A stretch of 64,000 nucleotides of DNA from an uncultured Gammaproteobacteria bacterium (GCA_964590345.1 CAZPVP010000004.1:42-64041); one strand, 5' to 3'; positions 6,764 through 57,051 are shown, numbered from the stretch's first letter. A program made the numbers and translations. Notes: a model not told the origin generated them from the sequence alone.

Positions 6764-9739
6764 ATGAAAGAAAAAAAATCCCAGTTTGCCCAAAAAGAAG
6801 AGGAAATAATTAAATTTTGGGAGAAAAATAAAATTTTTGAAAAATCAATTGAGCAGCGCAAAGAGTCGCCTATTTTTTCATTTTATGACGGGCCGCCTTT
6901 TGCTTCTGGTTCGCCGCATTATGGCCATATTTTGGCTTCAACCTTGAAAGATACAGTAACACGTTATTGGACAATGCGCGGTTATAAAGTTGAAAGGACA
7001 GTAGGCTGGGATTGTCATGGTTTGCCAGTGGAAAACTTGATTGAAAAAGAAAAAAAGATTAAATCAAAAAAAGAAATTTTAGAATTAGGCAAAGATGAAT
7101 ATGAAAGCATTAAAATTTTTAACGAAGCTTGTGCTGCTTCAGTTTTTCGTTGTGTAGATGAATGGAAAGATATTTTTAAACGCATTGGCCGTTGGGCAAA
7201 TTATGAAAATCAATATTCTACCATGGATAACGCATATATTGAATCTGTATGGTGGGTTTTTAAAGAATTATTTAATAGAGGATTAGTTTATAAAGATTAC
7301 CGGGTTTCTCCTTATTGTCCTCGTTGCGGCACACCCCTTTCTAATTTTGAAGTTAATCAAGGATACCAAAAAGTAAAAGAAAATTCTGTTTATTTGCAGT
7401 TTAAATTAAAGCTAGGTCAAAAAATAAATAATGAAGAATTAGATAAAAATACTTATATTCTTTCCTGGACTACGACCCCCTGGACTTTGCCGGGTAATGT
7501 TGGTTTGGCAGTTGGAGAAAATATTGATTACATTAAAGTTAAAGTTAATAATCATTATTTAATTTTGGCTAAAGCACGTCTGGAAATTATTGAGAGAATT
7601 TTTACAAATTACGACGTGGTTGAATATTATAAAGGCAGTGATTTGCTGGGCTTAGAATATGAACCGTTGTTTCCCAGCGCGATTCCGAAAAAGGAAACTA
7701 ATTTTGAAAATGCTTATAAAGTCTATGGCGCTGATTTTGTTACTACTGATGAAGGCACCGGCATAGTGCATACAGCTGTTATGTATGGCGAAGATGATTA
7801 TCAGTTAGGAGAAAAAATACGCTTGCCTAAGTACCATACGGTTGATTTAGAAGGTAAGTTTGTTGAGAGCCTTAAAAAATATAAGCTGGCTAATAAATTT
7901 GTAAAAGCAAAAGAAACCGAAGAAATAATAATTGATTATTTAAAAAAGAACCAATTTTTGTTTTACGAAGAATTATATGAGCACGATTATCCATTTTGTT
8001 GGCGTTGCGATAGTCCCCTGCTTTATTACGCACTTGATGCTTGGTTTGTTGCAGTGACAGAATTTCAAAACGATTTGACTAAAAATAATTTAACTATCGA
8101 ATTAGAGGACCCAAATGGCAAAAAGCACAAAGGTATTCGTTGGGTGCCGGAACATCTAAAAAGGGGTAGATTTGGCCATTGGTTAGAAAATGTTAAAGAT
8201 TGGAATATTTCCAGAAATCGTTTTTGGGGGGCACCTTTGCCGGTTTGGCAATGTCAAAAATGTGAACAAATTAAAGTTGTAGGTAGCCGGAAAGAGTTAG
8301 AAAATCCAGCGATTAAAGATTTACACAGGCCATACATTGATGAAGTTAAGTTTAAATGTAATTGCGGCGGTGAAATGCAAAGAATAGAAGAAGTTTTTGA
8401 CTGTTGGTTTGAATCTGGCTCAATGCCTTATGCCCAGTATCATTATCCATTTGAAAATAAGGAGAAGCTTGAAAATGGATTCCCGGCTGATTTTATTGCG
8501 GAAGGCTTAGATCAAACGCGGGGCTGGTTTTACACTTTACATGTTTTAGCTACAGCTTTATTTAATCAGCCGGCTTTTAAAAACGTGGTAGTTAACGGAT
8601 TAATTTTGGCTGAAGATGGTAAAAAGTTATCTAAGCGGCTAAAGAATTATACCGAGCCAAATATTTTATTTGATAAAGTTGGTGTTGATGCTGTTCGTTA
8701 TTTTCTTTTAGCTTCAACTCCAGTAGGGGAAGATTATCGTTTTTCAGACAGATTGGTTGAGGAAACGCTAAGAAAGACTGTTATGTTAATAAATAATATT
8801 TATAACTTTTTCGCCTTATATGAAAACACTGTTGAATATGATAAAGAGTTAAAACCAGAAAATTTAAAAAATATTTTAGACAAATGGATTGTTGCCAAAT
8901 TGAATTTATTAATAAAAAAAATAACAGAAGAAATGGACCGGTTTGACTTAACCAGAGCCAGCCGGCCGATTTTGGAGTTTATTAATGAATTCTCAACATG
9001 GTATTTGCGTCGCAGTCGTGATCGTTTTAAAGGTAATGATGAGGAAGACAAGAAATACGCTTTGGCTACTATGCATTATGTTTTATTGAATCTAAGTAAA
9101 GTATGCGGGCCTTTTATGCCATTTGTTTCTGAAGATATTTATCAAAAAATTAAAGGCCATAAAGAAAGCGTGCATTTGGAAGATTGGCCAGAGATTGCTG
9201 CTGAATTAATTGATACTAAATTATTAGAACAGATGGAAACTGTCAAAAAAATTATTGAACAGGCCTTGGCCGTCAGAGCCGAAGCAGGTATTAAAATACG
9301 TCAGCCGTTAAATAAGCTTTACATTACAAAAAAATCTGTGCCTAAGGATTTATACTTTTTAATTAAAGATGAAGTTAATATTAAGGAAATTGAAGTAGCT
9401 GATAAATTTCCTCAAAGTGACAATTTTAACATCGAAGCTGATGAAAATTATAAAGTCTGTTTGGATATTGAAATTACTCAAGATCTAAAATTAGAAGGCA
9501 ATGCCCGAGAAATAATCAGGCAAATTAATGCTTTGAGAAAGAAAATGAATTTGACTGTGGGAGATGTCGTTAATATTGTTTACCAAACTGAATCAGAAGA
9601 ATTAAAAAAAACAATTAATAAATTTGTTGAGGAAATTAAAAATAATACTTTAAGCAAAGAAATAATTGAGGGAGATGCCAATGAAGAAATGGATATTAAT
9701 GGAGAGAAGATTTTAATAAGAATAGAGAAAAAAGAATAA
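6764..9739 (+). CDS. ileS: Isoleucyl-tRNA synthetase
   Basis: HYGH motif (SPHYGHILAS), KMSKS-type KLSKRLKN, CP1 editing domain, 991 aa. Confidence 0.9.
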   Translation: MKEKKSQFAQKEEEIIKFWEKNKIFEKSIEQRKESPIFSFYDGPPFASGSPHYGHILASTLKDTVTRYWTMRGYKVERTVGWDCHGLPVENLIEKEKKIKSKKEILELGKDEYESIKIFNEACAASVFRCVDEWKDIFKRIGRWANYENQYSTMDNAYIESVWWVFKELFNRGLVYKDYRVSPYCPRCGTPLSNFEVNQGYQKVKENSVYLQFKLKLGQKINNEELDKNTYILSWTTTPWTLPGNVGLAVGENIDYIKVKVNNHYLILAKARLEIIERIFTNYDVVEYYKGSDLLGLEYEPLFPSAIPKKETNFENAYKVYGADFVTTDEGTGIVHTAVMYGEDDYQLGEKIRLPKYHTVDLEGKFVESLKKYKLANKFVKAKETEEIIIDYLKKNQFLFYEELYEHDYPFCWRCDSPLLYYALDAWFVAVTEFQNDLTKNNLTIELEDPNGKKHKGIRWVPEHLKRGRFGHWLENVKDWNISRNRFWGAPLPVWQCQKCEQIKVVGSRKELENPAIKDLHRPYIDEVKFKCNCGGEMQRIEEVFDCWFESGSMPYAQYHYPFENKEKLENGFPADFIAEGLDQTRGWFYTLHVLATALFNQPAFKNVVVNGLILAEDGKKLSKRLKNYTEPNILFDKVGVDAVRYFLLASTPVGEDYRFSDRLVEETLRKTVMLINNIYNFFALYENTVEYDKELKPENLKNILDKWIVAKLNLLIKKITEEMDRFDLTRASRPILEFINEFSTWYLRRSRDRFKGNDEEDKKYALATMHYVLLNLSKVCGPFMPFVSEDIYQKIKGHKESVHLEDWPEIAAELIDTKLLEQMETVKKIIEQALAVRAEAGIKIRQPLNKLYITKKSVPKDLYFLIKDEVNIKEIEVADKFPQSDNFNIEADENYKVCLDIEITQDLKLEGNAREIIRQINALRKKMNLTVGDVVNIVYQTESEELKKTINKFVEEIKNNTLSKEIIEGDANEEMDINGEKILIRIEKKE

Positions 9740-11360: not shown

Positions 11361-12602
11361 ATGGAATTATTGGCACCAGCCGGCAATTTTGCCAAAATGA
11401 AATATGCCATTGAATATGGCGCAGATTCAGTTTATTTGGGTTTGCCCGATTTTAGCTTGCGCGCTAGGATTAATGATTTTACGCCTGGCAAACTTAAAAC
11501 TGCAATTGAGTATGCTCATAAGCGAAAGAAAAAAGTTTATGTGACAGTTAATATTTATGCCCATAACCAGCATTTGGCAAAAGTTGAAAAAGTTTTAAAG
11601 CTTTTAAACCGATTAAAGCCCGATGCCGTCATTATTTCAGATCCGGGTGTTATTGTTTTGGCTAAGAAATATTCAAAAAATATTGACTTGCATCTTTCCA
11701 CGCAAGCTAACTGCACCAATTGGCAGGCAGCTAAATTTTGGTACGGGCAAGGAATTAAACGCATAATTTTAGCCCGAGAATTAAGTTTAAAAGAAATAGC
11801 CGAAACACATAAAAAAGTGCCGAAGCTGGAATTGGAATGCTTTATTCACGGAGCGATGTGTGTTTCTTATTCTGGTCGCTGTTTGCTTTCAGCTTGGTTT
11901 AATCAAAGAAGCGCTAATTTAGGATATTGTTCTCATCCCTGCCGTTGGGATTATAATATGTATATAGAAGAACAGCAGCGTCCCGGTGTTTATGTGCCGA
12001 TTGAAGAAGACCAGCACGGCACTTATATTTTAAGCTCAAAAGATTTGTGTATGTTAAAGTATTTGGATAAATTAGCAAAAGCAGGCGTTAAACATTTTAA
12101 AATTGAAGGCAGGACAAAAAGTATCAGTTATTTGGCGAATGTGGTTAAGATTTATCGTGAGGCAATTGATCTTACGAAATTACGAATCAGTACGAATATA
12201 CGAAAGGCTAAAATAAATAAGCTTTACAAAGAATTACATAAGATTTCTAATCGCGAGTTTACCACGGGCTTTTTCTTTGGCGGGGAAAAAATTCCAATGC
12301 AAAAGTATGACGCACCTTATGTTAGACCTGATTTAGAATTTTGCGGAGAAGTTTTAGAAAGTAAAAAAATAAAAGATACTTGGCAATATAAAATTAAAGT
12401 TCATAATGTTTTAAAAATGGGAGAGCGGGTTGAAGTAATCGTGCCGCAGGGCGAGAATTTTAAAATTAAACTGCCAGAGCTTTACGATTTGGATAAAAAG
12501 GAATATGTAACCGAAGTTCATGGTGGACAAGATAAAGCAGTTTTGATAAATTTAGATAAAGAGATGCCTTTAATGAGTATTTTAAGGAAAAAGAAAAAGT
12601 GA
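11361..12602 (+). CDS. Peptidase U32 family protein (YhbU/PrtC/TrhP-like)
   Basis: U32 signature region ECFIHGAMCVSYSGRCLLS and the Cys-rich HPCRW segment. Confidence 0.7.
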   Translation: MELLAPAGNFAKMKYAIEYGADSVYLGLPDFSLRARINDFTPGKLKTAIEYAHKRKKKVYVTVNIYAHNQHLAKVEKVLKLLNRLKPDAVIISDPGVIVLAKKYSKNIDLHLSTQANCTNWQAAKFWYGQGIKRIILARELSLKEIAETHKKVPKLELECFIHGAMCVSYSGRCLLSAWFNQRSANLGYCSHPCRWDYNMYIEEQQRPGVYVPIEEDQHGTYILSSKDLCMLKYLDKLAKAGVKHFKIEGRTKSISYLANVVKIYREAIDLTKLRISTNIRKAKINKLYKELHKISNREFTTGFFFGGEKIPMQKYDAPYVRPDLEFCGEVLESKKIKDTWQYKIKVHNVLKMGERVEVIVPQGENFKIKLPELYDLDKKEYVTEVHGGQDKAVLINLDKEMPLMSILRKKKK

Positions 12603-12633
12603 GGTTATTATCGGCCGCTTTTTTGATCCGCCA

Positions 12634-12813
12634 ACGGCGTGATAGCAGCCGTACGACGGCTAAAGCCGTCGATAATATTTAAGGAACAAGTAGTGTTTTT
12701 TTTAATTTTTTAATAAAGAGAGGGCGAAAACGCCCTGAACGCATGGACAGACTTTAGTCTGTTATATAACACTCTAAAGAGTGTCCTCCCAAGCGGGCGT
12801 TTTCGCCCAAGAA
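12634..12813 (+). ncRNA. GC-rich multi-hairpin element upstream of ruvA (structured 5' leader, terminator cluster or REP-like)
   Basis: Overlapping ACGGC/GCCGT hairpins at 12634-12670. Hairpins GGGCGAAAACGCCC (12722-12735), GACAGACTTTAGTCTGT (12746-12762), ACACTCTAAAGAGTGT (12769-12784) and GGGCGTTTTCGCCC (12795-12808). Confidence 0.4.
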
Positions 12814-12818
12814 AAATT

Positions 12819-13394
12819 ATGATTTCATATTTAAAAGGAAAAATTTCATATATCGGGGATAATGATATTGAAGTTATAGTCCAGGATGTTGGTTATAAAG
12901 TTTTTGTAGCTGGCGAGCTTTTTAGTAAAGTAAAAGTTGGACAGGAAGTAGAAGTCTTTTGTTTTCAAAATGTTAAAGAGGATGCTTTGGATCTTTATGG
13001 TTTTGAATCTCGTGACAAATTATACTTATTTGAAAAATTAGTTAGTGTTTCTGGTATTGGGCCAAAAACTGGCTTGGCTGTTTTAGCTTTGGCAACAGTT
13101 AAGGAAATTGAATCAGCTATAATTCGCGGGGATGCTTCAATTTTGACCAAAGTTTCCGGCATTGGTAAAAAAACAGCGGAACGGATTGTTTTAGAATTAA
13201 AAAATAAATTTAAGAAAGGCGCAGAATTGGTTGGCGAACCAAGTACACAATCCCAGGACGTTGACGTAATTGATGGTTTGGTTGGTTTGGGTTATACAGT
13301 TGAAGATGCGAGGCAGGCTTTGAGGCAAATTGATAAAAAAATTGAAGGGAGTGAGGAGAAGATTAAGGCATGTTTGAAGATATTAGGAAAATGA
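12819..13394 (+). CDS. ruvA: Holliday junction branch-migration protein RuvA
   Basis: N-terminal OB-fold domain, tandem HhH (GIGPKTG, GIGKKTAERI), C-terminal domain III. Confidence 0.85.
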   Translation: MISYLKGKISYIGDNDIEVIVQDVGYKVFVAGELFSKVKVGQEVEVFCFQNVKEDALDLYGFESRDKLYLFEKLVSVSGIGPKTGLAVLALATVKEIESAIIRGDASILTKVSGIGKKTAERIVLELKNKFKKGAELVGEPSTQSQDVDVIDGLVGLGYTVEDARQALRQIDKKIEGSEEKIKACLKILGK

Positions 13395-13484
13395 TACTAA
13401 TATACAAATTAATTACAAATAATTACAAATTTTTAAGTAATTTATTTATAGCAATTTGTATAATATTCGTAAATTTGTATCACT

Positions 13485-14399
13485 ATGGAAATAAAAGAAA
13501 TCACAAATAAAGAACAGTGGGATGAAAAGATTGGCTCTTTTAAGCAGAGCCAGTTTTTACAATCTTGGGAGTGGGGTGAATTTCAGGAAAATTTAGGCAG
13601 AAAAGTTTGGCGTCTATATTTAGATGGGGATTTTGCTTTAGTTATTAAAATGCCCTTGCCCATGAATAAAAGCTATTTATATATCCCCCGGACATGTGTG
13701 ACCTTTAATGAGGCAAAAATTAAAATTTTGCGCGAGTTAGCTAAACAAGAAAAAAGCATTTTTATAAAAATTGAACCTATTAAGCAAAACTTGTTGGATT
13801 TTGGCCTTAAAAAGGTTAAGTCGTTTCAGCCGCAAAAAACATTAATTTTAGATTTAAGTAAAAGTGAGGAAGAGTTATTGATGGCCATGCATCAGAAAAC
13901 CCGCTATAATATTCGTTTAGCAGATAAAAAAGGCGTTAAGATTAAAGAAGGCAGGAAAAATGATTTTGATGTTTTCTATAATTTAATGTTAAATACTTAT
14001 CAGCGTAAAAATAAAAAACTTTTTTCCAAAGAATATTATCAGAAATTAATCAATAATATCTCTGAAGCAAAAATTTATTTAGCAGAATTTGAAGAAAAAG
14101 TTATTTGTGCGAATTTAATTATGTTTTATGGCGATACAGTTACTTATTTACATGGCGGTTCAGCGCAAGAACATAAAAATGTTATGGCACCGTATTTATT
14201 GCAATGGGAAACAATAAAAAAAGCCAAAGAACTTGGCTATAAATATTATGATTTTTGGGGAATTGAAGAACATTATCTCGGAGTTGCCCGTTTTAAAAAG
14301 GGTTTTGGCGGGATTGAGATTGAATACCCGGGCACATTTGATTTAGTGATGGATAAATTATGGTATTGGGCTTATCAAGTGGTTAAAAAGTTCAAATAA
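13485..14399 (+). CDS. FemAB-family aminoacyltransferase-like protein (GNAT-like fold)
   Basis: Size and WEWGEF / TYLHGGS / YYDFWG segments resemble FemX/FemAB peptidoglycan bridge-forming enzymes; assignment is moderate. Confidence 0.4.
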   Translation: MEIKEITNKEQWDEKIGSFKQSQFLQSWEWGEFQENLGRKVWRLYLDGDFALVIKMPLPMNKSYLYIPRTCVTFNEAKIKILRELAKQEKSIFIKIEPIKQNLLDFGLKKVKSFQPQKTLILDLSKSEEELLMAMHQKTRYNIRLADKKGVKIKEGRKNDFDVFYNLMLNTYQRKNKKLFSKEYYQKLINNISEAKIYLAEFEEKVICANLIMFYGDTVTYLHGGSAQEHKNVMAPYLLQWETIKKAKELGYKYYDFWGIEEHYLGVARFKKGFGGIEIEYPGTFDLVMDKLWYWAYQVVKKFK

Positions 14400-14427
14400 A
14401 AAATTGGTTTTTTGAGGAGTTCACTCT

Positions 14428-14502
14428 TTAGAGTTTTAAATTAAAAGACTGAAGTCTGAATTTTATTGAGAAAACCAATTTTTTGTTAATTTTAGGTAAA
14501 AT
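14428..14502 (+). repeat. Repeated intergenic element, copy B (palindrome ACTCTTTAGAGT ... GTCTGAATT ... CCAATTTTTT); copy A at 3886-3940
   Basis: About 60-nt alignable homology with 3886-3940, including the 12-bp perfect palindrome. Confidence 0.5.
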
Positions 14503-14515
14503 TTACCAAATACTG

Positions 14516-14544
14516 TTGACAAAACAACAAAGATGTGCTATAAT
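14516..14544 (+). promoter_or_regulatory. Sigma70 consensus-like promoter TTGACA-17-TATAAT for the DGR target gene
   Basis: TTGACAaaacaacaaagatgtgcTATAAT, 80 nt upstream of the ATG; RBS GGAGAA. Confidence 0.55.
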
Positions 14545-14624
14545 TTCATATATAATAACGCGTAACTTGTCAACCAAATAACCAAATTTTCAGAATCCCC
14601 TAATGGGAGAAAGGAGAACTGGCG

Positions 14625-15401
14625 ATGAAAAAGAAAGTCGTCATTAGCCAGTCGACAGTGTCGGCCGGGCAACTCAAAGATCTGTTCCGCATGATTGATG
14701 ACGGAACGATCGGCAACGAAGAAATGGGTGCGTTTTTAGCCAGTCCGCGAAAGTTTTCCCAAGGCGGACTAACCACTATCCGGGCCATTAATATACTTGG
14801 CCAAGGCAAAGTCATCACGAACGAACAAGCAGCCAAAGCCTGGAGTGAGGGCGCGGTAAAAAGCGTGGCCATCCGCTACAGCGAAACAACTCTGCGCATA
14901 TGTGCGGAGCAGAACCAAAGCGGCCAGGCGGATTGGCGCTTGGTTTACTGCCACGGGTTTTCTCTGCGCGAACAGCGCGACAAGCGGAGAACAGACCAGA
15001 GCAACCAGCCGTGTTTTTACGGCAATGACTGGTGGCTCAACTCCGTTGAAGACAAGTGGGCGACATACAAACCTCAAGCCGGCTACTATCTCATCAATTT
15101 TTGTGGCCAGTTTGCTAACATGAACTGGAAAACGCAGGAAGCAGAGATCGCCAAACTCGGCAAGGACTATGAACGTTGCCATGAGGCAGTTTTCAGCGAA
15201 GCCATTTTGACCATTTACATGGTTAACAATGGCGAGCGAATTGCCGAGAACTGGTGGCACTGGGGCGTTTCGCTGGCTTCCAATGGCTTCCGAGTCTTTG
15301 TCGGCTATCTCAATTCTAATGGTCTCGATGTCTACTACCACTGGCTTGACTACTCCCTTCACGTCCTGCGCGTCTGCGTTTTTCGGAAGTTTGAAAATTG
15401 A
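14625..15401 (+). CDS. DGR variable (target) protein with the VR at its C-terminus; GC-rich (about 52%); no signal peptide
   Basis: The 3' 121 nt form the VR matching the TR at 15781-15901. The C-terminal WWHWG...LRVCVFR resembles the C-type-lectin/FGE-like fold ends of DGR targets. Confidence 0.75.
   Translation: MKKKVVISQSTVSAGQLKDLFRMIDDGTIGNEEMGAFLASPRKFSQGGLTTIRAINILGQGKVITNEQAAKAWSEGAVKSVAIRYSETTLRICAEQNQSGQADWRLVYCHGFSLREQRDKRRTDQSNQPCFYGNDWWLNSVEDKWATYKPQAGYYLINFCGQFANMNWKTQEAEIAKLGKDYERCHEAVFSEAILTIYMVNNGERIAENWWHWGVSLASNGFRVFVGYLNSNGLDVYYHWLDYSLHVLRVCVFRKFEN
15268..15388 (+). repeat. DGR variable repeat (VR)
   Basis: 121-nt alignment with the TR; 19 mismatches, 18 of them opposite TR adenines; 3' 27 nt (CCTGCGCGTCTGCGTTTTTCGGAA) identical (IMH-like). 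Confidence 0.85.
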
Positions 15402-15449
15402 CCATTGAACTCTTGACCTTTTTGAATTTTTAAACTTTGAATCTTTGTC

Positions 15450-15492
15450 CCTGTTAGATGAAAAATATCTGGCGGGGACTTTTTTATTTTAG
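15450..15492 (+). terminator. GC-stem hairpin plus T-run downstream of the VR (terminator or DGR target-recognition hairpin)
   Basis: GTCCC...(26 nt)...GGGAC followed by TTTTTTATTTT. Confidence 0.4.
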
Positions 15493-15780
15493 CAATTTGA
15501 GTTATAATAAAGCTGGACTGCTTGGCTAATGCAGGTTGGGTTACGGCTTAATCTCGCCAAGCCCCTATCTTTAGGGATTGCCAGAGTATCGTATCTTTAC
15601 GGAGTGCGATAGAGTGCAATTAAGGATAGAAAAAGAACTTCTTGCCCGGTTCTGGCGGAGGCATTTTAAATTAATTTTTAGGATTTGCTCTCAAATAAAA
15701 TACAGAAAGAAGAAAATATAAATCACTTAGAGTGATAGTAAATTTCAACTTTCAGTGATCAATGATGGAACTGGGCAAAT

Positions 15781-15901
15781 TTTCGCTGGCTTCCAATGGC
15801 AACCGAGTCAATGTCGGCAATCTCAATACTAATGGTCTCAATGTCAACAATAACTGGAATGACAACTCCAATCAAAACCTGCGCGTCTGCGTTTTTCGGA
15901 A
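15781..15901 (+). repeat. DGR template repeat (TR)
   Basis: Same frame as the VR but with 13 AAC/AAT (Asn) codons where the VR encodes F, Y, H, L, D or V; noncoding context between the target gene and avd. Confidence 0.85.
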
Positions 15902-15919
15902 CTTCTTTTTCTCGCCAGT

Positions 15920-16303
15920 CTAAATACCTTCGCCGTTTGCGGAGGTGTTTTCTTTGAGATTTTTAACAGACTTAATCCAGCCGCCCAGCATTCTGCCAAT
16001 TTCATCAATGATCATTTGCAGATTGACATACTTTTTGTTATCAATGGTCTTGACCTCTTTTGCCACCCTTAAAAAAACTCTTAATATGTTTAGTTGGCGA
16101 CTTAACTTTTCCATTTCTAGGAGTTTTTGTCTTTTGGGTAATTGCGCGGCTAAAAGCAGGCAATCAAGCATATCAATTACTGAATTTTCACACTTTTGCC
16201 AGAGGGTAAAGCGATCTTGCTTGGGAATTGATCTGCGGTAAAGATGCAAGACTTTATAAAGATCCACGATTTTTTGATAAATTGGCGCTTCTAAGATTTC
16301 CAT
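15920..16303 (-). CDS. avd: DGR accessory variability determinant (Avd), four-helix-bundle protein
   Basis: 127 aa; C-terminal EIGRMLGGWIKSV matches the bAvd EVGRILGSWIARV motif; TIGR02436 / 23S-rRNA-IVS-protein-like helices. Confidence 0.7.
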   Translation of the reverse strand: MEILEAPIYQKIVDLYKVLHLYRRSIPKQDRFTLWQKCENSVIDMLDCLLLAAQLPKRQKLLEMEKLSRQLNILRVFLRVAKEVKTIDNKKYVNLQMIIDEIGRMLGGWIKSVKNLKENTSANGEGI

Positions 16304-17386
16304 ATGAAGGTTTATTATGACTTATTTAATAAAATAATTTCCTTAGAAAATCTTTTTTCTGCCTGGGAGGAATTCAAGAAAGATAAAAGAAAAAAGAAAG
16401 ATGTTTTGTTTTTTGAGTGGAATTTGGAGCGTAACATTTTTAAACTGCGTGAGGAATTAGCATTAAAAATTTATAAGCATAGCCCTTATAGTTCATTTTA
16501 CATTAATGATCCCAAACAAAGGCATATTTACAAAGCAGAAGTCAGGGATAGAGTTTTGCATCATGCAATTTTTTCTGTTCTAAATCCGGTTTTTGAAGCA
16601 ACTTTTATCCCGAATTCCTTCTCTTGCCGTATTGGTAGGGGTACGCATAAAGGAGTGGAAGCTTTAGCTAAAATACTGTGCCAAGTCAGCGGCAACGGAC
16701 ATAATCCATGCTTTGCCCTGAAATGCGATATTAAAAAGTTTTTTGATACAGTGAATCATAAAATTTTACTGGAAATCATTGACCGTAAAATTAAAGACAA
16801 TAATGCAATTTGGCTGTTAAAAGAAATTATTGAAAGCTATTACACTAATTATTCCACTTTATTCAATAAGCGTGGTATTCCTATTGGTAATTTGACCTCT
16901 CAACTATTTGCCAATCTTTACCTTAACGAGCTTGACCAATATGTGAAGCACGATTTAAAAGTAAAATTTTATGTCCGCTACACTGATGATTTTGTCATAG
17001 TTGCGGACCACGAATCTTATTTGAAGAATATAATTTTGTTGATTAAAAAATTTTTAAATGATAACCTTGATTTAAATTTACATCCGAATAAAATAAGCAT
17101 CCGCAAATTTTCGCAGGGCATTGATTTTTTAGGCTATATTTTAAGACCGCATCACCGGCTGATCAGAACTAAAACAAAAAAGCGAATTTTCAAGAAAATC
17201 CGTTTGAGAATTATGGAATACAGAAGGGGAATAGTCAGAGAAGAAAAATTAGAACAATCATTACATTCTTATCTTGGAGTGCTCTCGCATGCTACCGCTC
17301 ATAATTTAAGCGAAAGATTAAAAAATGAATTTTTTTTATTCCTCTTGAACCAAACCTTTGCCTTTGGCCAGAGGATCATTATCTAA
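16304..17386 (+). CDS. DGR reverse transcriptase
   Basis: RT motifs 1-7 present. Motif 4 reads GIPIGNLTSQLFANLYLNELD, the DGR-specific IGxxxSQ in place of the QGxxxSP of group II intron RTs. Motif 5 is YVRYTDDFVIV; motif 3 is KCDIKKFFDTVNH. Confidence 0.85.
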   Translation: MKVYYDLFNKIISLENLFSAWEEFKKDKRKKKDVLFFEWNLERNIFKLREELALKIYKHSPYSSFYINDPKQRHIYKAEVRDRVLHHAIFSVLNPVFEATFIPNSFSCRIGRGTHKGVEALAKILCQVSGNGHNPCFALKCDIKKFFDTVNHKILLEIIDRKIKDNNAIWLLKEIIESYYTNYSTLFNKRGIPIGNLTSQLFANLYLNELDQYVKHDLKVKFYVRYTDDFVIVADHESYLKNIILLIKKFLNDNLDLNLHPNKISIRKFSQGIDFLGYILRPHHRLIRTKTKKRIFKKIRLRIMEYRRGIVREEKLEQSLHSYLGVLSHATAHNLSERLKNEFFLFLLNQTFAFGQRIII

Positions 17387-19390
17387 GTTTGTAGTAATTC
17401 CCTGATAAGTTTTAAAAATTCGTCCCTGTGTCTGGGAATCTGTTGCTTCAATATCGATTTTTGGCAGCAAAGTTAAAATTTTATCAGCATCATTTTGACT
17501 CGGTGTTATTGAAATTTCAAATTCAGCCGTTGATTCATTTATAGCGGTTGGAATACGTGAAATTTGCCAGACAACTTCATTATTCTGATTTTTGTATAAA
17601 TTGCCAGCAGAAGTGTTTTCTTGGTTTTCAAAGCTAACATAATCTGGCAGCTTTGCTTTAACTTCAATATTTTCAATATCATGCAAAGAATTAGTAATGG
17701 TCCAGAAAATTTTATAAGAAGTTTTTTGACCGACAATAGGAGGCAATGGCCCGGAGCCGATTGTTTGATTGTTTTCATCAAAATAGCGCCCTTCTGTTTT
17801 TAAATTCAAGTTAGTGTTAATTTCATTAATAATAATATTGCTTTCATTGACGACTTCAGCTTGTTTATTGTCAATTTTGTTAATTTGTGTTTCAAAAAAG
17901 CTTCTAACCTGATAGTCTTCTTCTTTATATTTTTTTTGATAATCTTTTAGTTTAATTTGGATATTAATTTCTATTTCATCTTCGGGAAATAAAACAGCTA
18001 ATTCAGGCGTTTGCTCTTTGGTCCACAAAATTTGGTGACCTTCATTGATGCCATTACCGTCATCTTTTAAAGTTGACCAATTTAAAAATGGCGAATCAGA
18101 AATTAATCTTACTTTTAAATCACCCAAAGTGTTTTTGCTTTTATTTTGAATGCTTAACAAATAATTCAATGTCCCCCCAAAATTAACTGGTTTATTTTGA
18201 TTAGAGCCTTGAATAATTAAATTGTTTAAAAGTTCACCCTTGATAACTTCAATTGTAAATTTTTTTTCGCCTTGAATAAAATATTCATCAGCCGGGCCTT
18301 TTAATTTAACTTTAATATTAAATTCTAAAGTTTGGCTTTCTTCAACTTGAAATTCGCCTTGGAAATTAATATCTTTTTCGGCTTGCGCAGCCAAATTATC
18401 AATTGCCCAGATTTTGGGCGCGTTTTTTTCTTCATCGTCTATACTTTTTTTTTCTTCTTCATTAGCAATAATTTTACTTTGATTAAGTGTAAATTGCGCT
18501 GGATAATTTAATTCCACCTGAAGATTGTTTAAATCAATATCCTGAGAATTGTTTTTTAATTTTATATTAAATTCAGCTTTTTCTTGGTTGGCGACTTGAT
18601 TCGGATATTCAATCTCAAAATCAACCAAGCTATCGGTAATTTCAGTATTAAAAGAAACAGTTTTTTGAAATTCCGAGCTAAAATTAACCGGTATATAACT
18701 CAATGTGGCAGAAATTTGCTGTTTTGTATTTTGGCTGCCGATTAATTTTCCGGTTATTTCTAAAGTGCCTGATTCACCGCCGGAAATATTATTAAGTTGC
18801 CATTTTTTTATATTAGAATAGCCTTTTTCATCGTTTGTATCGGCAGCAGGTTTTTTATTGGAAGATTCAAAAATAAAACCGTAAGGCAAATAAACAAATA
18901 ATTTTGCCTGGCTAAAAGCTGTGTCTTCTGCATTAGCATATTTAATTTGATAAGTTACTTTTTCACCAGAAACAGCATTAAAAGGAGCTTTTATTTCTAA
19001 ATTAATTTTTTCGCCAGTGAACTTTGCTTTGGGCTGAAAAACTAAAAAGCCGAGGAAGGAAACAGTAAAAATGATAACCAAAATAATAATAATTAAAATA
19101 ACAAGATTAAAAATATTGTTTCTCTTTTTAAATTCTATGTTAGCCATGTTAGGCATCTTGCCTTTGCCGTCTTGATAGATGCTTTTTAGTCCTTTTTCAA
19201 TTTCTTTAGATTTAGAAACTATTTTGGGCTTTTGTTTTTTTTCTGCTTTGCCCCGGGTTTTAAGAGATTTTGTCTTTTTTTTTCTAATAGGTTTTTTAGC
19301 TTTTTTTGTTTTAGCTAAAGGCTGATCAGTTTGAGCCTGTTTTTTGTTTTTTTGCTTTATTTTTTTGTTTTTTTTCTTTTTTGTAGACAT
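17336..19390 (-). CDS. Membrane-anchored surface protein: Lys-rich N-terminal tail, one TM, repeated beta-rich extracellular domains
   Basis: K-rich residues 1-60, TM IFNLVILIIIILVIIFTVSFLGFLVF, then repeated DUF11/CARDB-like segments. Confidence 0.5.
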   Translation of the reverse strand: MSTKKKKNKKIKQKNKKQAQTDQPLAKTKKAKKPIRKKKTKSLKTRGKAEKKQKPKIVSKSKEIEKGLKSIYQDGKGKMPNMANIEFKKRNNIFNLVILIIIILVIIFTVSFLGFLVFQPKAKFTGEKINLEIKAPFNAVSGEKVTYQIKYANAEDTAFSQAKLFVYLPYGFIFESSNKKPAADTNDEKGYSNIKKWQLNNISGGESGTLEITGKLIGSQNTKQQISATLSYIPVNFSSEFQKTVSFNTEITDSLVDFEIEYPNQVANQEKAEFNIKLKNNSQDIDLNNLQVELNYPAQFTLNQSKIIANEEEKKSIDDEEKNAPKIWAIDNLAAQAEKDINFQGEFQVEESQTLEFNIKVKLKGPADEYFIQGEKKFTIEVIKGELLNNLIIQGSNQNKPVNFGGTLNYLLSIQNKSKNTLGDLKVRLISDSPFLNWSTLKDDGNGINEGHQILWTKEQTPELAVLFPEDEIEINIQIKLKDYQKKYKEEDYQVRSFFETQINKIDNKQAEVVNESNIIINEINTNLNLKTEGRYFDENNQTIGSGPLPPIVGQKTSYKIFWTITNSLHDIENIEVKAKLPDYVSFENQENTSAGNLYKNQNNEVVWQISRIPTAINESTAEFEISITPSQNDADKILTLLPKIDIEATDSQTQGRIFKTYQGITTNLDNDPLAKGKGLVQEE

Positions 19391-19392
19391 AA

Positions 19393-22164
19393 TTAATTCG
19401 GTCTAAAAATTATGGCTAATAATTTATCTGTATTTAAGAAATCTTCAAAAGTAAAGGTATTAGATTTTTTTATTAAAGTATCGGGAAAAATTATTTGATA
19501 ATTTAAAGAAGGGGGTAAGGTTATTTTAATATTAATTTTAAAATTATGCTTGCCAGATTGTTTTTGCCAAAGCAAAGAATATTTTTCCAAATCATCATCA
19601 GCACTGTTTAAATTTAGTTCTTTTTTAATCAGATTTAAATAATCTAATTGTTGGTTTTGTTTTTTCAAATTTAATTGAAAAGGTGGTTTGTATTTTAAAG
19701 TCACTGTTTTTGTTTCTCCTGGCTCAATTTTAAACCAATTAGCAAAAACCGTCTTGCCGTTTTCTTTGAAAATTTCGGTTTGGCTTTCTGATTCTATTTT
19801 TTTAGTTTTGTTAATAAAAGCGATTGTCGGATCTTTTTGATAAATTTCAGGATGAAGAATTGTAAAAAGTTCAGGTGGCATTTTTTCAAAACCTGAAGCG
19901 GAAATAAGCTGACTATTTTGTGGTACATAAATCCTTAAATAATCCAGATTAGGCACGCCATAAAAATTTTCTCCCTTTTTGCCTAAGTGAGTCTTTGTTA
20001 TATTTAAAGTATTTGTAATAGAGCCGTCATTTTTAATATTAACCTCCAAATTTGCAGTTTGTTTAATTTTTGCATCAGTTTTTTCACCAGCAATATTAGT
20101 ACTGACAATATTAAGATAATCTTTGTCAGTATCTTTCAAACGGCCGCCCCAGTTGTTTTTTAAAACAGCTTTTTCCAAGATAAAATTAGTGAAATAAAAC
20201 TGGATTTCTTTTTCATTCAAAGAAGTTAAAATTAAATCTAAAATTTCAGTGAATTGTTTTTTGTCAGATTTTAATAAACCATTAATAATTTTGGGTGTTA
20301 AATCAGCAATTATTTGTTTTGGTTTGTTTTCTTTTTTATCATATTCAAGTTCGACACTTTCCTGAATTGTTTGAAAAAAATTGTCAGCGCTGATAGTTTT
20401 ATTGTATTTAGGTAATTCTATCGGTTCAATTATTGTTAATATTTTTTCTAAAAAAGTAGCATTAATAAAAATTAGTCCATCAACCGTGGGCCCGCCGCTT
20501 TTTTCATAAAACCAAATTAATTTTTCAGCGGAAGTGGGTAAATCAGCAAACCAGTTAGCGTCTTGAAATTCCCAGCGAGGATTTATTAAATGTAAAGGTT
20601 TGGGTGATTCAACGTTAACTTTTAATCCGGCTTTTAAATCATATGGCCCTCCTCCGGGGATGTTTATTTTTTTAATATTACCTTTATCAATATCAACTAA
20701 AGCAAAGCTGCCGATAAATCCTCCAGTTGGCCTTATCTCATTATTATTTTGAAAAAGTAAAAGATATCTTTTTTTGCTTTCTTGGCCTAGTAATTTAAGA
20801 ATTAAATCGGAAGAAGAAACAAAATTAGCAACATTTTTTTCCAAGATTGGCAAGGCTATTTGTAGTTTTTTTATTTTTGTTTGATAAGGTTTGGGTATTT
20901 TATTTAAATTAATTTTTTGTAAATCGCTGGCGGCTGATTTTAAATCAGGCAACATTAGATTGAGATCATTTTTTAAAATAGTTAATTTTTCGGTTAAATT
21001 TAATGAATCAATGGATTTTTCTATTTTAATTTTATCTAAACTGGCTGTTAAAATGGCTGCACTTTTTGAAAGTTTTTCACCAATAGCAACTAGTTTTTTG
21101 GCCGCTTCAAATTCTTTTTTATATTCAGGAGTTAAATTAATAATATTTTTAATAATTAAATTTATACTTTCAAGCTCATTTTTTGCTTGGCTAAAATTAT
21201 TGCTAGCTTTTTTTAGCTCAAGCTGTGTATAATAAAGATCTTGTGCTGAAGCAGCTTTTTGAGAAATTGCTAAATGCCAAAGAGCCTGACTGGTTTTTTC
21301 TAAAATTGTATTCTTTTTGCCTTGTAAATTTTGATAATAGTCATAACTTAAAAAAGGCAAGATAAAAAACAGGCAAAAAACAATAAAAATCAAAATTTTT
21401 TTCGCCCAAAAAGAAGGAATAATAAATGTCCCCAATCTGATTTCTTTGGGATTTAGTTTTGGTAAAGAAAAATTAAATTTCGGCAATTTTATTTTAGGCA
21501 AATTAATTTTGTAGCTTTTTTTAATTGGTTTAAAATACGTTTTTGGGTCCTTTTTTAAAATTTGTTCTGATTTTGTAAGTTTTTTCCGTAATCGGCCATA
21601 GATGCTTTGCAATCTTTTTTTAAAGTCCTTTTTTTGTTTGTTGAATTTATTAAAAAGTTCTGAAGTAATAATTTGAGCATGTTCTTTCTCAGTCTGTTCA
21701 GAAAGATTTTGAGCAGCTTGAATTTTTTTCAGATCTAAAATATGCGGGGAAAGTTTTGCTGTTTTTTTTCTAGTTATTGTTTTATTTTTTTTTATTGATG
21801 TTGATTCTTTATTTTCTGGCGGTGTTTGTTCGGTTTTGTTTAAAAGAATTTTTGTTGAACTTTTTTTGTTTTGGATTTTATTTTGAGGCTTTTTAGTAGG
21901 TTTTTTAGAAATAGAAGCTTTACGGGTAATATTTTTCCCGTTTTTTTTGGCTATTGTCTGTTTTTTAACAGCATTCTTTTTTTTATTAGAAACTTTGCGA
22001 TTATTTTTTTTGATCGATGTTTTTGTCGCTCGTTTTCTGTTTTGTCGCTTATTAGAAGCCTTGCGAGCATTGTTTTTTGGGGTTTTTCCAGGTGCTCCTT
22101 TTTTTGTCTGTTTTTTTGTGGCATTTTTTCTCTTAGCAGTTTTTTTTATTTTTCCTTTAGGCAT
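19393..22164 (-). CDS. DUF4012-domain membrane protein with a Lys-rich N-terminal tail
   Basis: RYLLLFQNNNEIRPTGGFIGSF motif typical of DUF4012; K-rich N-terminus; one TM; first gene downstream of the GT cluster. Confidence 0.55.
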   Translation of the reverse strand: MPKGKIKKTAKRKNATKKQTKKGAPGKTPKNNARKASNKRQNRKRATKTSIKKNNRKVSNKKKNAVKKQTIAKKNGKNITRKASISKKPTKKPQNKIQNKKSSTKILLNKTEQTPPENKESTSIKKNKTITRKKTAKLSPHILDLKKIQAAQNLSEQTEKEHAQIITSELFNKFNKQKKDFKKRLQSIYGRLRKKLTKSEQILKKDPKTYFKPIKKSYKINLPKIKLPKFNFSLPKLNPKEIRLGTFIIPSFWAKKILIFIVFCLFFILPFLSYDYYQNLQGKKNTILEKTSQALWHLAISQKAASAQDLYYTQLELKKASNNFSQAKNELESINLIIKNIINLTPEYKKEFEAAKKLVAIGEKLSKSAAILTASLDKIKIEKSIDSLNLTEKLTILKNDLNLMLPDLKSAASDLQKINLNKIPKPYQTKIKKLQIALPILEKNVANFVSSSDLILKLLGQESKKRYLLLFQNNNEIRPTGGFIGSFALVDIDKGNIKKINIPGGGPYDLKAGLKVNVESPKPLHLINPRWEFQDANWFADLPTSAEKLIWFYEKSGGPTVDGLIFINATFLEKILTIIEPIELPKYNKTISADNFFQTIQESVELEYDKKENKPKQIIADLTPKIINGLLKSDKKQFTEILDLILTSLNEKEIQFYFTNFILEKAVLKNNWGGRLKDTDKDYLNIVSTNIAGEKTDAKIKQTANLEVNIKNDGSITNTLNITKTHLGKKGENFYGVPNLDYLRIYVPQNSQLISASGFEKMPPELFTILHPEIYQKDPTIAFINKTKKIESESQTEIFKENGKTVFANWFKIEPGETKTVTLKYKPPFQLNLKKQNQQLDYLNLIKKELNLNSADDDLEKYSLLWQKQSGKHNFKINIKITLPPSLNYQIIFPDTLIKKSNTFTFEDFLNTDKLLAIIFRPN

Positions 22165-56841: not shown

Positions 56842-56946
56842 TTTAGTCCGCCTGGGTGGAATCCTCGCTTTCGCTAAAGCTTCAGCGGGGCAGGCGAACC
56901 CTCGAACCCTACCTTACTTGCCCCGCCGAACAAAGCCATTTTAAGG

Positions 56947-57018: not shown

Positions 57019-57051
57019 CATAAAAATATTATACTTTTAAAATGTTCGGCT

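Follow-up and report, generated by a model that had tools for sequence, protein, structure and literature searches.

The locus described here raises the question of where a diversity-generating retroelement (DGR) carries the RNA that primes its cDNA. To our knowledge, the priming mechanism of DGRs is known from one phage element alone, with a spacer downstream of the template repeat (TR). The gene order at 14516-17386 of the window (the whole stretch of DNA analysed, 64,000 nucleotides, G+C 33.6%) leaves no room for a downstream spacer of the phage type.

The cassette is almost certainly a complete chromosomal DGR. All components that define such an element were found, each backed by a separate test: a target gene with the variable repeat (VR), the TR at 15781-15901 (+), avd at 15920-16303 (-) and the reverse transcriptase (RT) gene at 16304-17386 (+). 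This is the composition that an earlier note had read from the DNA. The order target(VR)-TR-avd-RT, with avd on the reverse strand, is that of architecture B3, TR-(avd)-RT, catalogued by Wu et al. 2018 (PMC5758913). The avd gene points towards the TR and away from the RT gene, with which it has abutting start codons (CAT-ATG, 16301-16306). Of 80 related metagenome loci, 77 have a reverse-strand avd adjoining the RT start. An A-biased TR/VR pair is present in 53 loci; in 48 of them the TR shares a strand with the RT and sits immediately 3' of the avd stop, in 4 it is on the opposite strand, and locus L011 of the same set carries the same module inverted relative to the target. The orientation of avd, as well as the structured RNA between VR and TR and the repeat array after the VR (both described below), was absent from the earlier note.

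The RT (360 aa) had been recognized from its IGxxxSQ motif. It contains IGNLTSQ (in the context IPIGNLTSQ) and YTDD, that is, the [I/L/V]GxxxSQ and YxDD motifs of DGR enzymes. Its best solved relative is the Bordetella phage bRT (8ub7, E 1.8e-45, residues 4-342, full length), ahead of the next RT class among solved structures (E 2e-24) by 21 orders of magnitude. The match to PHROG 1423 has E 2.6e-115, more than 6250 relatives were found at E<=1e-40, and identity to hundreds of Patescibacteria RTs is 60-83%. The Avd-like gene of the earlier note proved to be a minus-strand avd (accessory variability determinant, 127 aa), which scores 82.4 bits with NCBIfam DivGenRetAVD (curated cut-off 80) and 64.7 bits with Pfam bAvd (cut-off 40) and matches the PHROG "Avd protein of DGR".

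The VR (15268-15388, +; target residues 215-255) and the TR align without gaps over 121 nt at an offset of 513 with 19 mismatches, just as had been proposed, and the same pair is the top family of a repeat finder. At eighteen of the mismatches the TR has an adenine (12 A>T, 4 A>C and 2 A>G), the sole exception being a T>C at TR 15851/VR 15338, which implies some drift since the last homing event. Thus 18 of the 35 TR adenines are changed against one of the 86 other bases (Fisher p 5.7e-11), and the adenine specificity asserted earlier is reproduced by the tabulated spectrum. The changed adenines occupy codon position 1 in 12 cases, position 2 in 5 and position 3 in one; in the VR frame 14 of 39 TR codons are AAY, in agreement with the description of the TR as in frame and rich in Asn codons. 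The repeats have identical ends of 24 nt (3') and 20 nt (5'). The identical, IMH-like 3' end of the earlier note is present, with a length of 24 nt (15365-15388 in the VR) rather than 27, and the VR is indeed near the 3' end of the coding sequence, stopping 13 nt short of the last stop-codon base (15401). The shared 24-nt segment starts GC-rich and closes both repeats. The flanks diverge immediately afterwards, into a TTGA array behind the VR and a candidate primer-binding tract behind the TR. No further VR for this TR was found in the 64 kb: its 3' 23-mer occurs at just these 2 sites, even with up to 3 mismatches allowed.

These repeats also bear on whether the RT might belong to another system (a retron, a group II intron or a defence RT) standing beside a chance repeat. 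The placement of the primer 5' of the template, discussed below, recalls retron msr-msd, and NCBIfam models of the group II intron (TIGR04416), Drt and retron_St85_RT all match the RT; their scores of 161.8, 86 and 55.4 bits, however, stay far under the curated cut-offs of 300, 200 and 235. The lead of bRT among solved structures, the curated DGR Avd adjoining the RT, the adenine-specific repeat spectrum (p about 6e-11) and the absence of any intron or retron RNA family match from Rfam in the window together rule out a non-DGR RT system, the probability of which we regard as negligible.

The target gene (14625-15401, +) encodes 258 aa and has a G+C of 51% against a background of 31-34%. A promoter-like site with 12 of 12 consensus matches (TTGACA, 17 nt, TG-TATAAT) is predicted upstream at 14516-14544 (+). 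The protein shows no Pfam family and no visible signal peptide or hydrophobic segment. Searches for sequence relatives in Pfam, NCBIfam, PHROGs and the PDB (by sequence and by profile) were all negative, so that the fold is the sole informative clue. In the structure model, residues ~50-258 adopt a C-type-lectin/FGE-like fold, like known DGR targets and as the earlier note had envisaged for the C-terminus; the N-terminal ~50 residues are helical with low model confidence. The VR is situated at the 3' end of a coding target with a variation-tolerant fold. At the level of sequence the target is unrelated to the DGR variable proteins TvpA (2y3c), Mtd (1yu0) and TaqVP (5vf4), to the FGE-type folds PvdO, SenA and EgtB and to the C-terminal domain of Lcl, and it differs from all of these as a stand-alone 258-aa protein. 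Its family numbers 29 members found, all in Patescibacteria. Judging from the model, the element apparently gives a single small lectin-fold protein, which seems to be cytoplasmic, a hypervariable binding face.

Right after the VR lie five TTGA (CTTGR-type) repeats (15398-15440, +; at 15398, 15405, 15413, 15422 and 15437), the first of which includes the target stop codon. CTTGR copies amount to 3.55 per 70 nt after VRs versus 0.80 after TRs and 0.77 in shuffled sequence, with a spacing mode of 8 nt. The array is a candidate marker of the recipient site. It is followed by an intrinsic-terminator-like hairpin of 14 pairs with a T run (15447-15479, +), the predicted end of the target transcript, and by a TATAAT box (15503-15508, +) some 8-14 nt upstream of the first helix in the RNA domain described next. 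Similar -10-like boxes occupy the same place in related loci (left part of the alignment), and the box may serve as promoter for the TR RNA.

Directly 5' of the TR, covariation and folding reveal a conserved structured RNA domain of ~260 nt (15517-15780, +). It is formed by helices P0 (15521-26/15556-61), P1 (15531-41/15546-55), P3 (15578-81/15616-19), P3a (15587-98/15601-11), P4 (15642-53/15767-78), P5 (15657-64/15684-91) and P6 (15705-24/15734-53), with the single strand CAAATAAAATACA at 15692-15704, all on the + strand. The 3' strand of P4 ends 2 nt before the TR, and 23 of 34 loci have a gap of 2-6 nt between P4 and the start of the TR. In a sequence-only MAFFT alignment of 20 loci, 44 of the 59 pairs have double compensatory changes, and 93.9% of the cells are paired versus 72.5% after shuffling and 40-49% when the partners are slid. 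The 3' half, compared over 64 distinct sequences, has compensatory changes at 32 of 34 pairs and 94.4% of cells paired. A covariance model of this half finds exactly one copy in the window, with no second one there, and one in each of 64 RT loci, and matches none of 10 target-only loci. Owing to its many G-U pairs, the structure is specific to the TR strand. The minimum free energy fold of 15515-15960 alone recovers all helices together with the long-range duplex and the terminal hairpin considered below (z = -3.4). There is hardly any doubt that this 5' domain is a genuine structured RNA and a part of the DGR.

The domain contains a purine strand AGAAAAAGAA (15628-15637, +), which ends at the near-invariant A15637 and is followed by a CTTC linker and P4. 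A pyrimidine tract TTCTTTTTCT (15903-15912, +), starting 2 nt past the TR/VR identity, is complementary to this strand and covaries with it. The two form a perfect 10-bp duplex in the window (AGAAAAAGAA/UUCUUUUUCU); the counterparts are UGAGAUAGAA/UUCUAUCUCA in locus L015, GAGAUGGAA/UUCCAUCUC in L011 and GGAGAUAAAAC/GUUUUAUCUCU in L086. Cognate duplexes of primer strand and TR flank have a mean of -12.0 kcal/mol versus -8.5 kcal/mol for non-cognate ones (permutation p<2e-4), while three control segments, the antisense-avd region among them, gave no cognate advantage (permutation p 0.4-0.8). By this covariation the purine strand and the TR 3' tract truly pair over a long range. The 3'-terminal base of the purine strand is A in 48 of 52 loci. 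This strand is a candidate primer strand with a candidate priming adenosine; from the geometry we infer that A15637 would be the priming nucleotide. In one subgroup of loci the pairing can run 1-4 nt beyond the invariant A, so that the exact starting nucleotide is uncertain. The motif ACTTCTT, of which the window has a copy in the 5' domain and another immediately behind the TR, was considered as a binding site for a common partner and dropped, its copies not changing together across loci.

Beyond the tract, the window has a 12-bp hairpin at 15922-15950, preceded by an A tract and followed by a U tract. Of 53 loci, 50 have a hairpin of 6 bp or more in the first 80 nt downstream of the TR; most of these hairpins have 9-12 bp and begin 8-20 nt past the TR. 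The hairpin of the window shares its sequence with the last ~10 codons of avd, the frame of which enters it unlike in most relatives. It is likely a bidirectional terminator of the TR RNA and avd, and possibly an Avd-binding stem-loop. In a different reading of the locus the DGR is real but uses downstream RNA for priming, in the manner of the Bordetella phage. That RNA would comprise the terminal hairpin and what lies past it, antisense to avd, and the 5' domain would be a leader with a regulatory role, an element for stability or a scaffold resembling a chaperone. Handa et al., who examined 40 nt upstream and 100 nt downstream of the TR, describe phage-like downstream elements in CPR DGRs and, for 207 of 278 DGRs including those of CPR, infer stem-loops that bind Avd immediately 3' of the TR. 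The near-constant hairpin could suffice for Avd and the 5' domain might serve otherwise; the domain also lacks similarity to the phage spacer family RT-10 at the level of both sequence and model (Rfam). Nevertheless, the TR 3' tract covaries with the upstream purine strand and has no cognate complementarity (p 0.82) with the antisense-avd region, the site of a phage-type spacer. No BPP-1-type RNA, with a TR-strand spacer between TR and RT that carries the priming A and the elements for binding RT and Avd, was found at the locus. The position of the hairpin between A and U tracts resembles that of a bidirectional terminator, so the RNA probably ends there, and helices flank the TR within 1-6 nt on both sides, which fits a role in starting and stopping synthesis. 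We consider downstream priming rather unlikely and lean, with some reserve, towards the 5' domain supplying the primer and RT-binding functions, cDNA synthesis being primed from upstream.

Upstream priming could proceed as follows. The TR would be transcribed in its own RNA of ~440 nt (roughly 15515-15960), consisting of the 260-nt folded 5' domain, the 121-nt TR, the 10-nt pyrimidine tract and the terminal hairpin with its U tract. Pairing of the purine strand with the tract just beyond the TR would set A15637 beside the first template base (C15902/A15901). RT-Avd would bind the P4-P6 part of the domain and prime cDNA at A15637, presumably from a 2'-OH, in analogy to Sp A56 in the Bordetella phage element and to the retron branching G. 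The RT would then copy the TR with random incorporation opposite adenines and halt at P4. The cDNA would replace the VR via the identical ends, which would recode up to 18 codons in the lectin-fold tip of the target. A DGR of the Patescibacteria clade, for which this mechanism is proposed, is very probably the best explanation of the locus as a whole.

Whether the element still operates was approached by comparison with the related locus L002 and with the target family, as a stand-in for a test of VR heterogeneity in population reads. The TR of L002 differs from that of the window at 15 positions, and at ~14 of these each VR matches the change of its own TR; a further 24 VR-VR differences are found where both TRs are identical. 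In the target family the entropy is 2.89 bits at TR-adenine codons versus 1.37 at other VR codons. The comparison thus favours activity of the element, as far as sequences can tell. It is also conceivable that the locus is a fossil with intact genes and repeats, in which retrohoming has ceased and the TR/VR differences are frozen. The T>C mismatch, the entry of the avd frame into the hairpin and the apparently frameshifted avd of L002 would suit such a history. Against it, the three ORFs are full length with the RT catalytic motifs kept, the window retains every RNA helix and an unbroken long-range duplex, drift has touched only one of 86 non-A positions, and the VRs follow their own TR at lineage-specific substitutions, which means that homing took place after the window and L002 lineages split. 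An inactive element is therefore improbable, and the DGR is probably active at present.

The DGR itself is one more instance in an abundant, already catalogued clade of thousands. What extends beyond this locus is the RNA; the covariation gives a concrete clade-wide model of how cDNA is primed, stopped and perhaps targeted, naming A15637, the duplex 15628-37/15903-12, P4 and the CTTGR array. The chances are evenly balanced that across the TR-(avd)-RT Patescibacteria clade an RT-Avd-recruiting, cDNA-priming RNA lies 5' of the template, as a circular permutation of the avd-TR-Sp RNA with msr-msd topology, A15637 as branch point, P4 as stop and the CTTGR array as recipient mark. If this is true, it represents an undescribed variant of DGR RNA architecture, links DGR and retron priming mechanistically and gives a function to an orphan RT-associated RNA motif related to Rfam RT-16. 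Confirmation would aid the annotation of TR RNA boundaries in CPR DGRs and the engineering of compact DGRs, and would bear on the kinship of DGR and retron RNAs. The searchable literature, covered in part and excluding Paul et al. 2017 (the main CPR DGR paper) and the supplements of Weinberg et al. 2017, yielded no account of the RNA domain, of the way it pairs with the 3' flank of the TR or of the CTTGR array.

As an element, the cassette is of a known and ordinary type, the Patescibacteria (CPR) DGR with TR-(avd)-RT layout, which corresponds to DGR clade 2 of Roux et al. 2021 (PMC8144416). It shares with these DGRs the gene order, the avd orientation, the cellular rather than phage context and a small target with a C-terminal VR and no recognisable membrane or Pfam domain; its gene content shows no difference from theirs, and it is a member of the group.

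Among known RNAs, no DGR-related Rfam family reaches the gathering score in the window or in 20+15 related loci. The best Rfam match of the 3' half of the domain is RT-16 (RF03019; Weinberg et al. 2017), an RT-associated motif without assigned function, with 28.9 bits in the window and 23.8 in L013 (gathering score 50). L046 gave no match, nor did any of 35 other loci in batch scans, which are less sensitive than single-region searches (one scan at the gathering score and one at E<=1, where a match of the strength seen in the window would fall outside). The two RNAs share the outer stem, the single strand AUAAAAUACAG, the GGUGA motif and the AGUA-containing internal loop, and RT-16 has a different 5' hairpin. 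With scores below gathering in two loci and absence from a third, the RNA was not filed under RT-16, which is at most a sister family.

The RNA has the topology of retron msr-msd: a 5' duplex strand, a branching nucleotide, RT-binding stem-loops, the template and a 3' duplex strand, with cDNA that would start beside the terminal duplex. The likeness is of topology alone. This element has a DGR-class RT and an Avd, its candidate priming base is A where retrons have G, its template is a repeat that encodes protein and serves for homing into a VR, and nothing implies a function of the msDNA type.

A parallel in arrangement is the DGR of Bordetella phage BPP-1 (mtd-avd-TR-brt; RNA avd 3' end-TR-Sp; 8ub7 and related entries). 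Both have an RT with IGxxxSQ and YxDD, Avd, adenine mutagenesis at AAY codons and a target of C-type-lectin fold with C-terminal VR. In both RNAs a strand ending in A forms a duplex with the region just 3' of the copied template, and one strand of a second duplex lies directly 5' of the TR; next come a hairpin, a single strand of ~13 nt and a long stem with internal loops. The domain order of primer strand, short linker, stop strand, small hairpin, 13-nt single strand and long stem with internal loops is that of the phage Sp RNA (preprint 10.1101/2023.10.23.563531). In BPP-1, however, these elements are 3' of the TR, between TR and brt, whereas in the window they are 5' of it and only the 10-nt tract and the hairpin follow the TR, so that the connectivity is circularly permuted. 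The avd strand is opposite in the two elements. The primer-binding tract is just outside the TR/VR homology in the window and inside IMH* in BPP-1, and after the VR the window has the CTTGR array and a terminator hairpin in place of the GC-rich cruciform of BPP-1. The parallel is one of element order, not of homology: the duplex of purine strand and TR flank recalls the primer:template duplex of the phage, placed upstream as in retrons.

The template repeat (TR, 15781-15901) aligns without gaps to the variable repeat (VR, 15268-15388) at an offset of 513, with 19 mismatches, 18 of which fall at TR adenines (12 A>T, 4 A>C and 2 A>G); the sole exception is a T>C change at TR 15851. This substitution spectrum, whose tabulation had been proposed as a check in an earlier note on this DNA, bears out the gapless, adenine-specific 121-nt repeat pair described there: TR contains 35 A in its 121 bases, and 18/35 of these differ in VR against 1/86 non-A positions (Fisher p 5.7e-11). 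The mutated adenines occupy codon position 1 in 12 cases, position 2 in five and position 3 in one, and 14 of the 39 TR codons are AAY when read in the VR frame. The pair is the largest direct repeat returned for the region by the repeat finder. With three mismatches allowed, the 3' 23-mer of TR has no third site in the 64 kb beyond TR and VR, so a single target is present inside the window. Two details are to be corrected: the identical 3' tail, given as 27 nt, is 24 nt long (15365-15388), and VR, taken to be the last 121 nt of the target CDS (14625-15401, plus strand), stops 13 nt short of its end.

The reverse transcriptase (RT; 16304-17386, plus strand, 360 aa) matches the RT of the Bordetella phage diversity-generating retroelement (DGR), bRT (8ub7), over its full length with E 1.8e-45; the next class is formed by retron/group II-type RTs (E 2e-24). 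It carries the motifs YTDD and IPIGNLTSQ, the latter being the DGR-diagnostic IGxxxSQ motif noted previously. The NCBIfam scores for group II intron, Drt and retron types are all far under the cut-offs. The proposed Avd-like gene (15920-16303, 127 aa) was likewise confirmed by NCBIfam DivGenRetAVD (82.4 bits, cut-off 80) and Pfam bAvd (64.7 bits, cut-off 40) and was also matched by the PHROG 'Avd protein of DGR'. TR, RT and Avd are all present as claimed, except that avd sits on the minus strand. The adenine-specific TR/VR pair, the bRT-like RT and the curated Avd match support the reading of a complete system: the window element is a genuine, complete DGR, and the earlier note was right save for small details.

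The start codons of avd and RT lie back to back (CAT/ATG, 16301-16306), and neither side has a Shine-Dalgarno sequence. A -10-like TAAGAT is located 6 nt upstream of the RT ATG, and CATAAT 10 nt upstream of the avd ATG on the opposite strand. This arrangement suggests divergent leaderless or near-leaderless transcripts, each promoter being placed within the coding region of the other gene. In the closest related cassette, L002 from Uhrbacteria (RT 83% identical), all TR/VR mismatches (19/19) are at adenines; avd matches there (7238-7618) as three overlapping pieces, apparently in different frames, which reflects either a frameshift in a pseudogene or faulty assembly.

The RT belongs to a family of more than 6250 proteins at E<=1e-40, hundreds of which are 60-65% identical to it. 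In 77 of 80 metagenome loci whose RT is 46-80% identical to that of the window, avd is found on the reverse strand directly upstream of RT. An A-biased TR/VR pair was identified in 53 loci (window, L002 and L011 included); in 48 of them TR has the same strand as RT and lies immediately 3' of the avd stop, in 4 it is on the opposite strand, and in L011 the same module is inverted with respect to its target. This TR-(avd)-RT layout corresponds to architecture B3 of Wu et al. 2018 (PMC5758913), and DGR clade 2 of Roux et al. 2021 (PMC8144416) is restricted to Patescibacteria, cellular, and has targets without recognisable domains. As both layout and clade are already published, the element belongs to a known kind, in support of the initial interpretation; within its abundant and catalogued clade it is an ordinary case. 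The surrounding genes are housekeeping ones (U32 peptidase, RuvA-like, FemAB), none of them phage. Within 12000-20000 the GC skew is positive on the plus strand for most of 12-17.5 kb, so the target gene is probably oriented with replication, the evidence being weak for so short a stretch; this probable direction agrees with the orientation preference of a reconstituted DGR (PMC12875486). Two large adjacent genes (684 and 923 aa) occupy 17336-22164 on the minus strand; the first of them runs against RT and shares 51 nt with the 3' end of that gene. In both products a hydrophobic segment comes after an N-terminus extremely rich in lysine, and DUF11 repeats in the first protein indicate that the pair encodes probable surface proteins.

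The target protein (258 aa) gave no match in Pfam, NCBIfam, PHROGs or PDB by sequence and profile searches. It has 29 homologues, those named being all from Patescibacteria (Falkowbacteria, Uhrbacteria, Parcubacteria). Its AlphaFold2 model, built using the homologue alignment, has pLDDT 87.9 and pTM 0.81, and Foldseek comparison of the model shows weak agreement with a C-type-lectin/FGE-like fold. Lineage comparison of the window with L002, which has the same layout, was used in place of reads as a proxy for activity. The two TRs differ at 15 positions and the two VRs at 38, of which 24 are sites where the TRs agree and 14 sites where they differ; 27 of the 38 have an adenine in a TR. For about 14 of the 15 TR differences, the VR of each lineage agrees with its own TR. 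Such tracking at lineage-specific sites implies that information has passed from TR to VR since the lineages split. Among the 28 aligned family sequences, the 18 codons whose first or second position is an adenine in TR have a mean column entropy of 2.89 bits; the value is 1.37 bits for the remaining 23 codons of VR and 1.41 bits for residues 51-214 (Mann-Whitney p 5e-6). Judging from these comparisons, the DGR is probably active.

VR is followed by a CTTGA/CTTGG array (15398-15440), which is also found at the VR flanks of the related loci L002 and L013-L091, as well as in L004, L006, L092 and L093, and is absent from L001, L003, L008 and L010. Per 70 nt, VRs are followed by 3.55 copies and TRs by 0.80, shuffles giving 0.77 (Wilcoxon p about 1e-8). 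The copies are spaced most often by 8 nt or multiples of it, and three or more are present in 35 of 51 loci. Since the CTTGG variants contain no stop codon, the array is more than a set of back-up stops. Its occurrence beside target homologues without a nearby RT (8 copies in L092 and L093, 5 in L004) suggests that these genes are diversified in trans. Target homologues stand mostly alone among housekeeping genes (L001, L003, L004, L006, L008, L010, L092, L093; neighbours are, for example, uvrA...rplS and macB...hrcA-grpE-dnaK), neither RT nor avd being found within 4-6 kb, and the MAG STA_35 holds two target paralogues on separate contigs. The G+C content of the family (window and L001-L010) is 51-60% (GC3 58-72%) regardless of a host locus composition of 31-49%. 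The window target forms a 51% G+C island in a 31% background, which RT (32%) and avd (38%) fit. The bias is seen at synonymous sites, so amino-acid content does not explain it; either frequent gene movement or nucleotide-level selection may be the cause.

The 380 nt separating VR and TR are not spacer junk. A terminator-like hairpin of the target gene (15447-15479) precedes a TATAAT box (15503-15508), and similar -10-like boxes occupy the equivalent place in relatives. About 260 nt that follow are conserved at the nucleotide level although the RTs are just 55-65% identical (nhmmer). RNAalifold, applied to a MAFFT sequence-only alignment of 20 loci, predicts helices of 59 pairs, 44 of them with compensatory double changes. 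Paired cells reach 93.9%, against 72.5% in column shuffles (0/500 reach the observed value) and 40-49% with partners slid by 1-3 columns; the covariation score is 0.70 versus 0.28 and 0.09-0.19, respectively. As shown by the abundant G-U pairs, it is the TR strand that folds. The first helix is P0 (15521-26/15556-61), which encloses P1 (15531-41/15546-55); a variable hairpin separates P1 from P3 (15578-81/15616-19), and P3a (15587-98/15601-11) lies within the latter. Then come a purine strand (15628-37), a CTTC linker (15638-41) and P4 (15642-53/15767-78), the two strands of which embrace P5 (15657-64/15684-91), the conserved single strand CAAATAAAATACA (15692-15704), P6 (15705-24/15734-53) and a junction (15754-66); TR begins at 15781. 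The distance from P4 to the first TR/VR-identical base is 2 nt in the window and 2-6 nt in 23 of 34 loci.

A sequence HMM detects the domain in 59 of 92 sequences, and wherever a match reaches the model end its 3' end adjoins TR. Searches with a covariance model built on the 3' half (146 positions, 34 pairs) gave a single copy in the window (15624-15780, 126 bits), one per locus in 64 RT loci and none in 10 loci holding a target homologue only; the RT loci without a match mostly have no sequence upstream of avd. In the 64 distinct sequences 94.4% of cells pair and 32/34 pairs show double changes, in an alignment which is fitted to the model and hence biased towards structure. No Rfam family reaches its gathering score in a scan of the region. 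Below threshold, the 3' half is matched best by RT-16 (RF03019; gathering score 50), which scores 28.9 bits in the window, 23.8 bits in L013 and gives no match in L046; none was returned at E<=1 when 15 other loci (59 kb) were scanned as a batch, a match as weak as that of the window falling beyond this cut-off. The domain is at most a sister of RT-16. The motifs RT-1 to RT-19 lie near RT genes, and only RT-10, the phage spacer, was assigned to a DGR by Weinberg et al. 2017 (PMC5737381), who speculated that other RT motifs might be part of DGRs or retrons; the literature searched contained no later report of a function for RT-16.

Other structured RNAs were also observed. LOOT RNA (RF03000), also among the orphan motifs of Weinberg et al., occurs a few kb or less from four related DGR cassettes, well over its gathering score and always on the minus strand (L020 1324-1448, L025 5989-6112, L037 2153-2279, L046 5337-5458), and is absent from the window. 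The bacterial class A RNase P RNA of the window (27310-27837, minus strand) scores 116 bits, just over the gathering score of 100, and its 528 nt on a 367-position model imply large insertions. ARAGORN predicts a tRNA-Ile with anticodon TAT (UAU) at 56945-57019 on the minus strand. Most bacteria use instead a tRNA-Ile with a CAU anticodon modified to lysidine, so a UAU tRNA-Ile would be unusual.

The purine strand is followed directly by a near-invariant A-C (A in 48 of 52 loci) and is complementary to a pyrimidine tract that begins 1-2 nt past the TR/VR identity. Both sides covary across loci: purine strand and TR 3' flank are AGAAAAAGAA and UUCUUUUUCU in the window and L002, AGAGAUAGAA and UUCUAUUUCU in L013, UGAGAUAGAA and UUCUAUCUCA in L015, GAGAUGGAA and UUCCAUCUC in L011, UAGAGAUGGAA and UUCCAUCUUUA in L039, UAGGGAUUUUAU and AUAAAAUCUUUA in L038, UUUAGACAC and GUGUCUAAA in L084, and GGAGAUAAAAC and GUUUUAUCUCU in L086. 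In a register-free test on 33 loci with distinct sequences, with which earlier versions agree, the mean duplex energy is -12.0 kcal/mol for cognate and -8.5 kcal/mol for non-cognate combinations (permutation p<2e-4), the own flank being among the top three in 16/33 loci. Two other segments of the 5' domain gave no cognate signal with the TR flank (p 0.39 and 0.42). In the window the duplex begins 2 nt past the last TR/VR-identical base, so that P4 and the long-range duplex flank TR on either side. When the single window sequence 15515-15960 is folded by minimum free energy, P0-P6, the duplex (10 bp) and a terminal hairpin of 12 bp are recovered independently (z = -3.4).

In 50 of 53 loci the 80 nt that follow TR contain a perfect hairpin with 6 bp or more. 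These hairpins are mostly of 9-12 bp, begin 8-20 nt beyond TR and are usually flanked by an A tract on the 5' side and a U tract on the 3' side; the element looks like a bidirectional terminator common to the TR RNA and convergent avd. Most relatives have it between TR and the stop codon of avd; in the window (15922-15950) it overlaps the last ~10 avd codons. In the phage element the place directly after TR is taken by an Avd-binding stem-loop (10.1101/2023.10.23.563531), and the main rival explanation is that priming is phage-like, from the hairpin region, the 5' domain serving another role. The 80 nt downstream of the hairpin (antisense to avd), the place of a phage-type spacer, gave no cognate signal with the TR flank (p 0.82), and we regard this explanation as rather improbable. 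That the 5' domain itself supplies the priming, at or beside A15637, appears moderately probable.

The proposed mechanism is derived from the element order shared with the phage RNA together with a retron-like topology. RT-Avd would bind P4-P6, and cDNA would be primed at or beside A15637, the last base of the purine strand. Copying would run from 15902/15901 to 15781 and stop at P4. The cDNA would then home into VR via the ends that both repeats share (24 nt and 20 nt). The helices and their covariation have been demonstrated here; the priming, the stop, the protein contacts and the transcript ends are what we infer. In the searchable literature neither an upstream RNA domain of CPR DGRs nor a CTTGR array was found to be described, and Handa et al. 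covered only 40 nt upstream and 100 nt downstream of TR (10.1101/2023.10.23.563531); both features are provisionally considered undescribed. The window displays two clade-wide and directly testable features, namely a retron-like upstream DGR RNA and a CTTGR array marking the VR as opposed to the TR flank.

In the phage element cDNA is primed from the 2'-OH of A56 of the spacer RNA (Sp), at the end of a short duplex with TR 118-121; 2 nt further on Sp pairs with the bases immediately preceding TR to give the 'cPRT Stop' duplex. Beyond this strand lie a small stem-loop, the 'Thumb Ring' (13 nt, single-stranded) and a long stem that binds bRT and contains two internal loops (10.1101/2023.10.23.563531). 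The order of elements in the window RNA is alike. A strand ending in a near-invariant A pairs with the template-adjacent tract and is followed by a 4-nt linker; the partner strand of P4 adjoins the TR 5' end, and next come hairpin P5, a 13-nt conserved single strand and the long stem P6 with conserved internal loops, one of them containing AGUA. Loops in RT-10 and RT-16 have both been flagged as sarcin-ricin-like (PMC13085918). The connectivity, in contrast, is different: the module of the window RNA lies 5' of TR and is closed onto it by P4, which makes the window RNA a circular permutation of the phage RNA. Its topology (duplex strand, branch nucleotide, RT-binding stem-loops, template, duplex strand) is that of a retron msr-msd.
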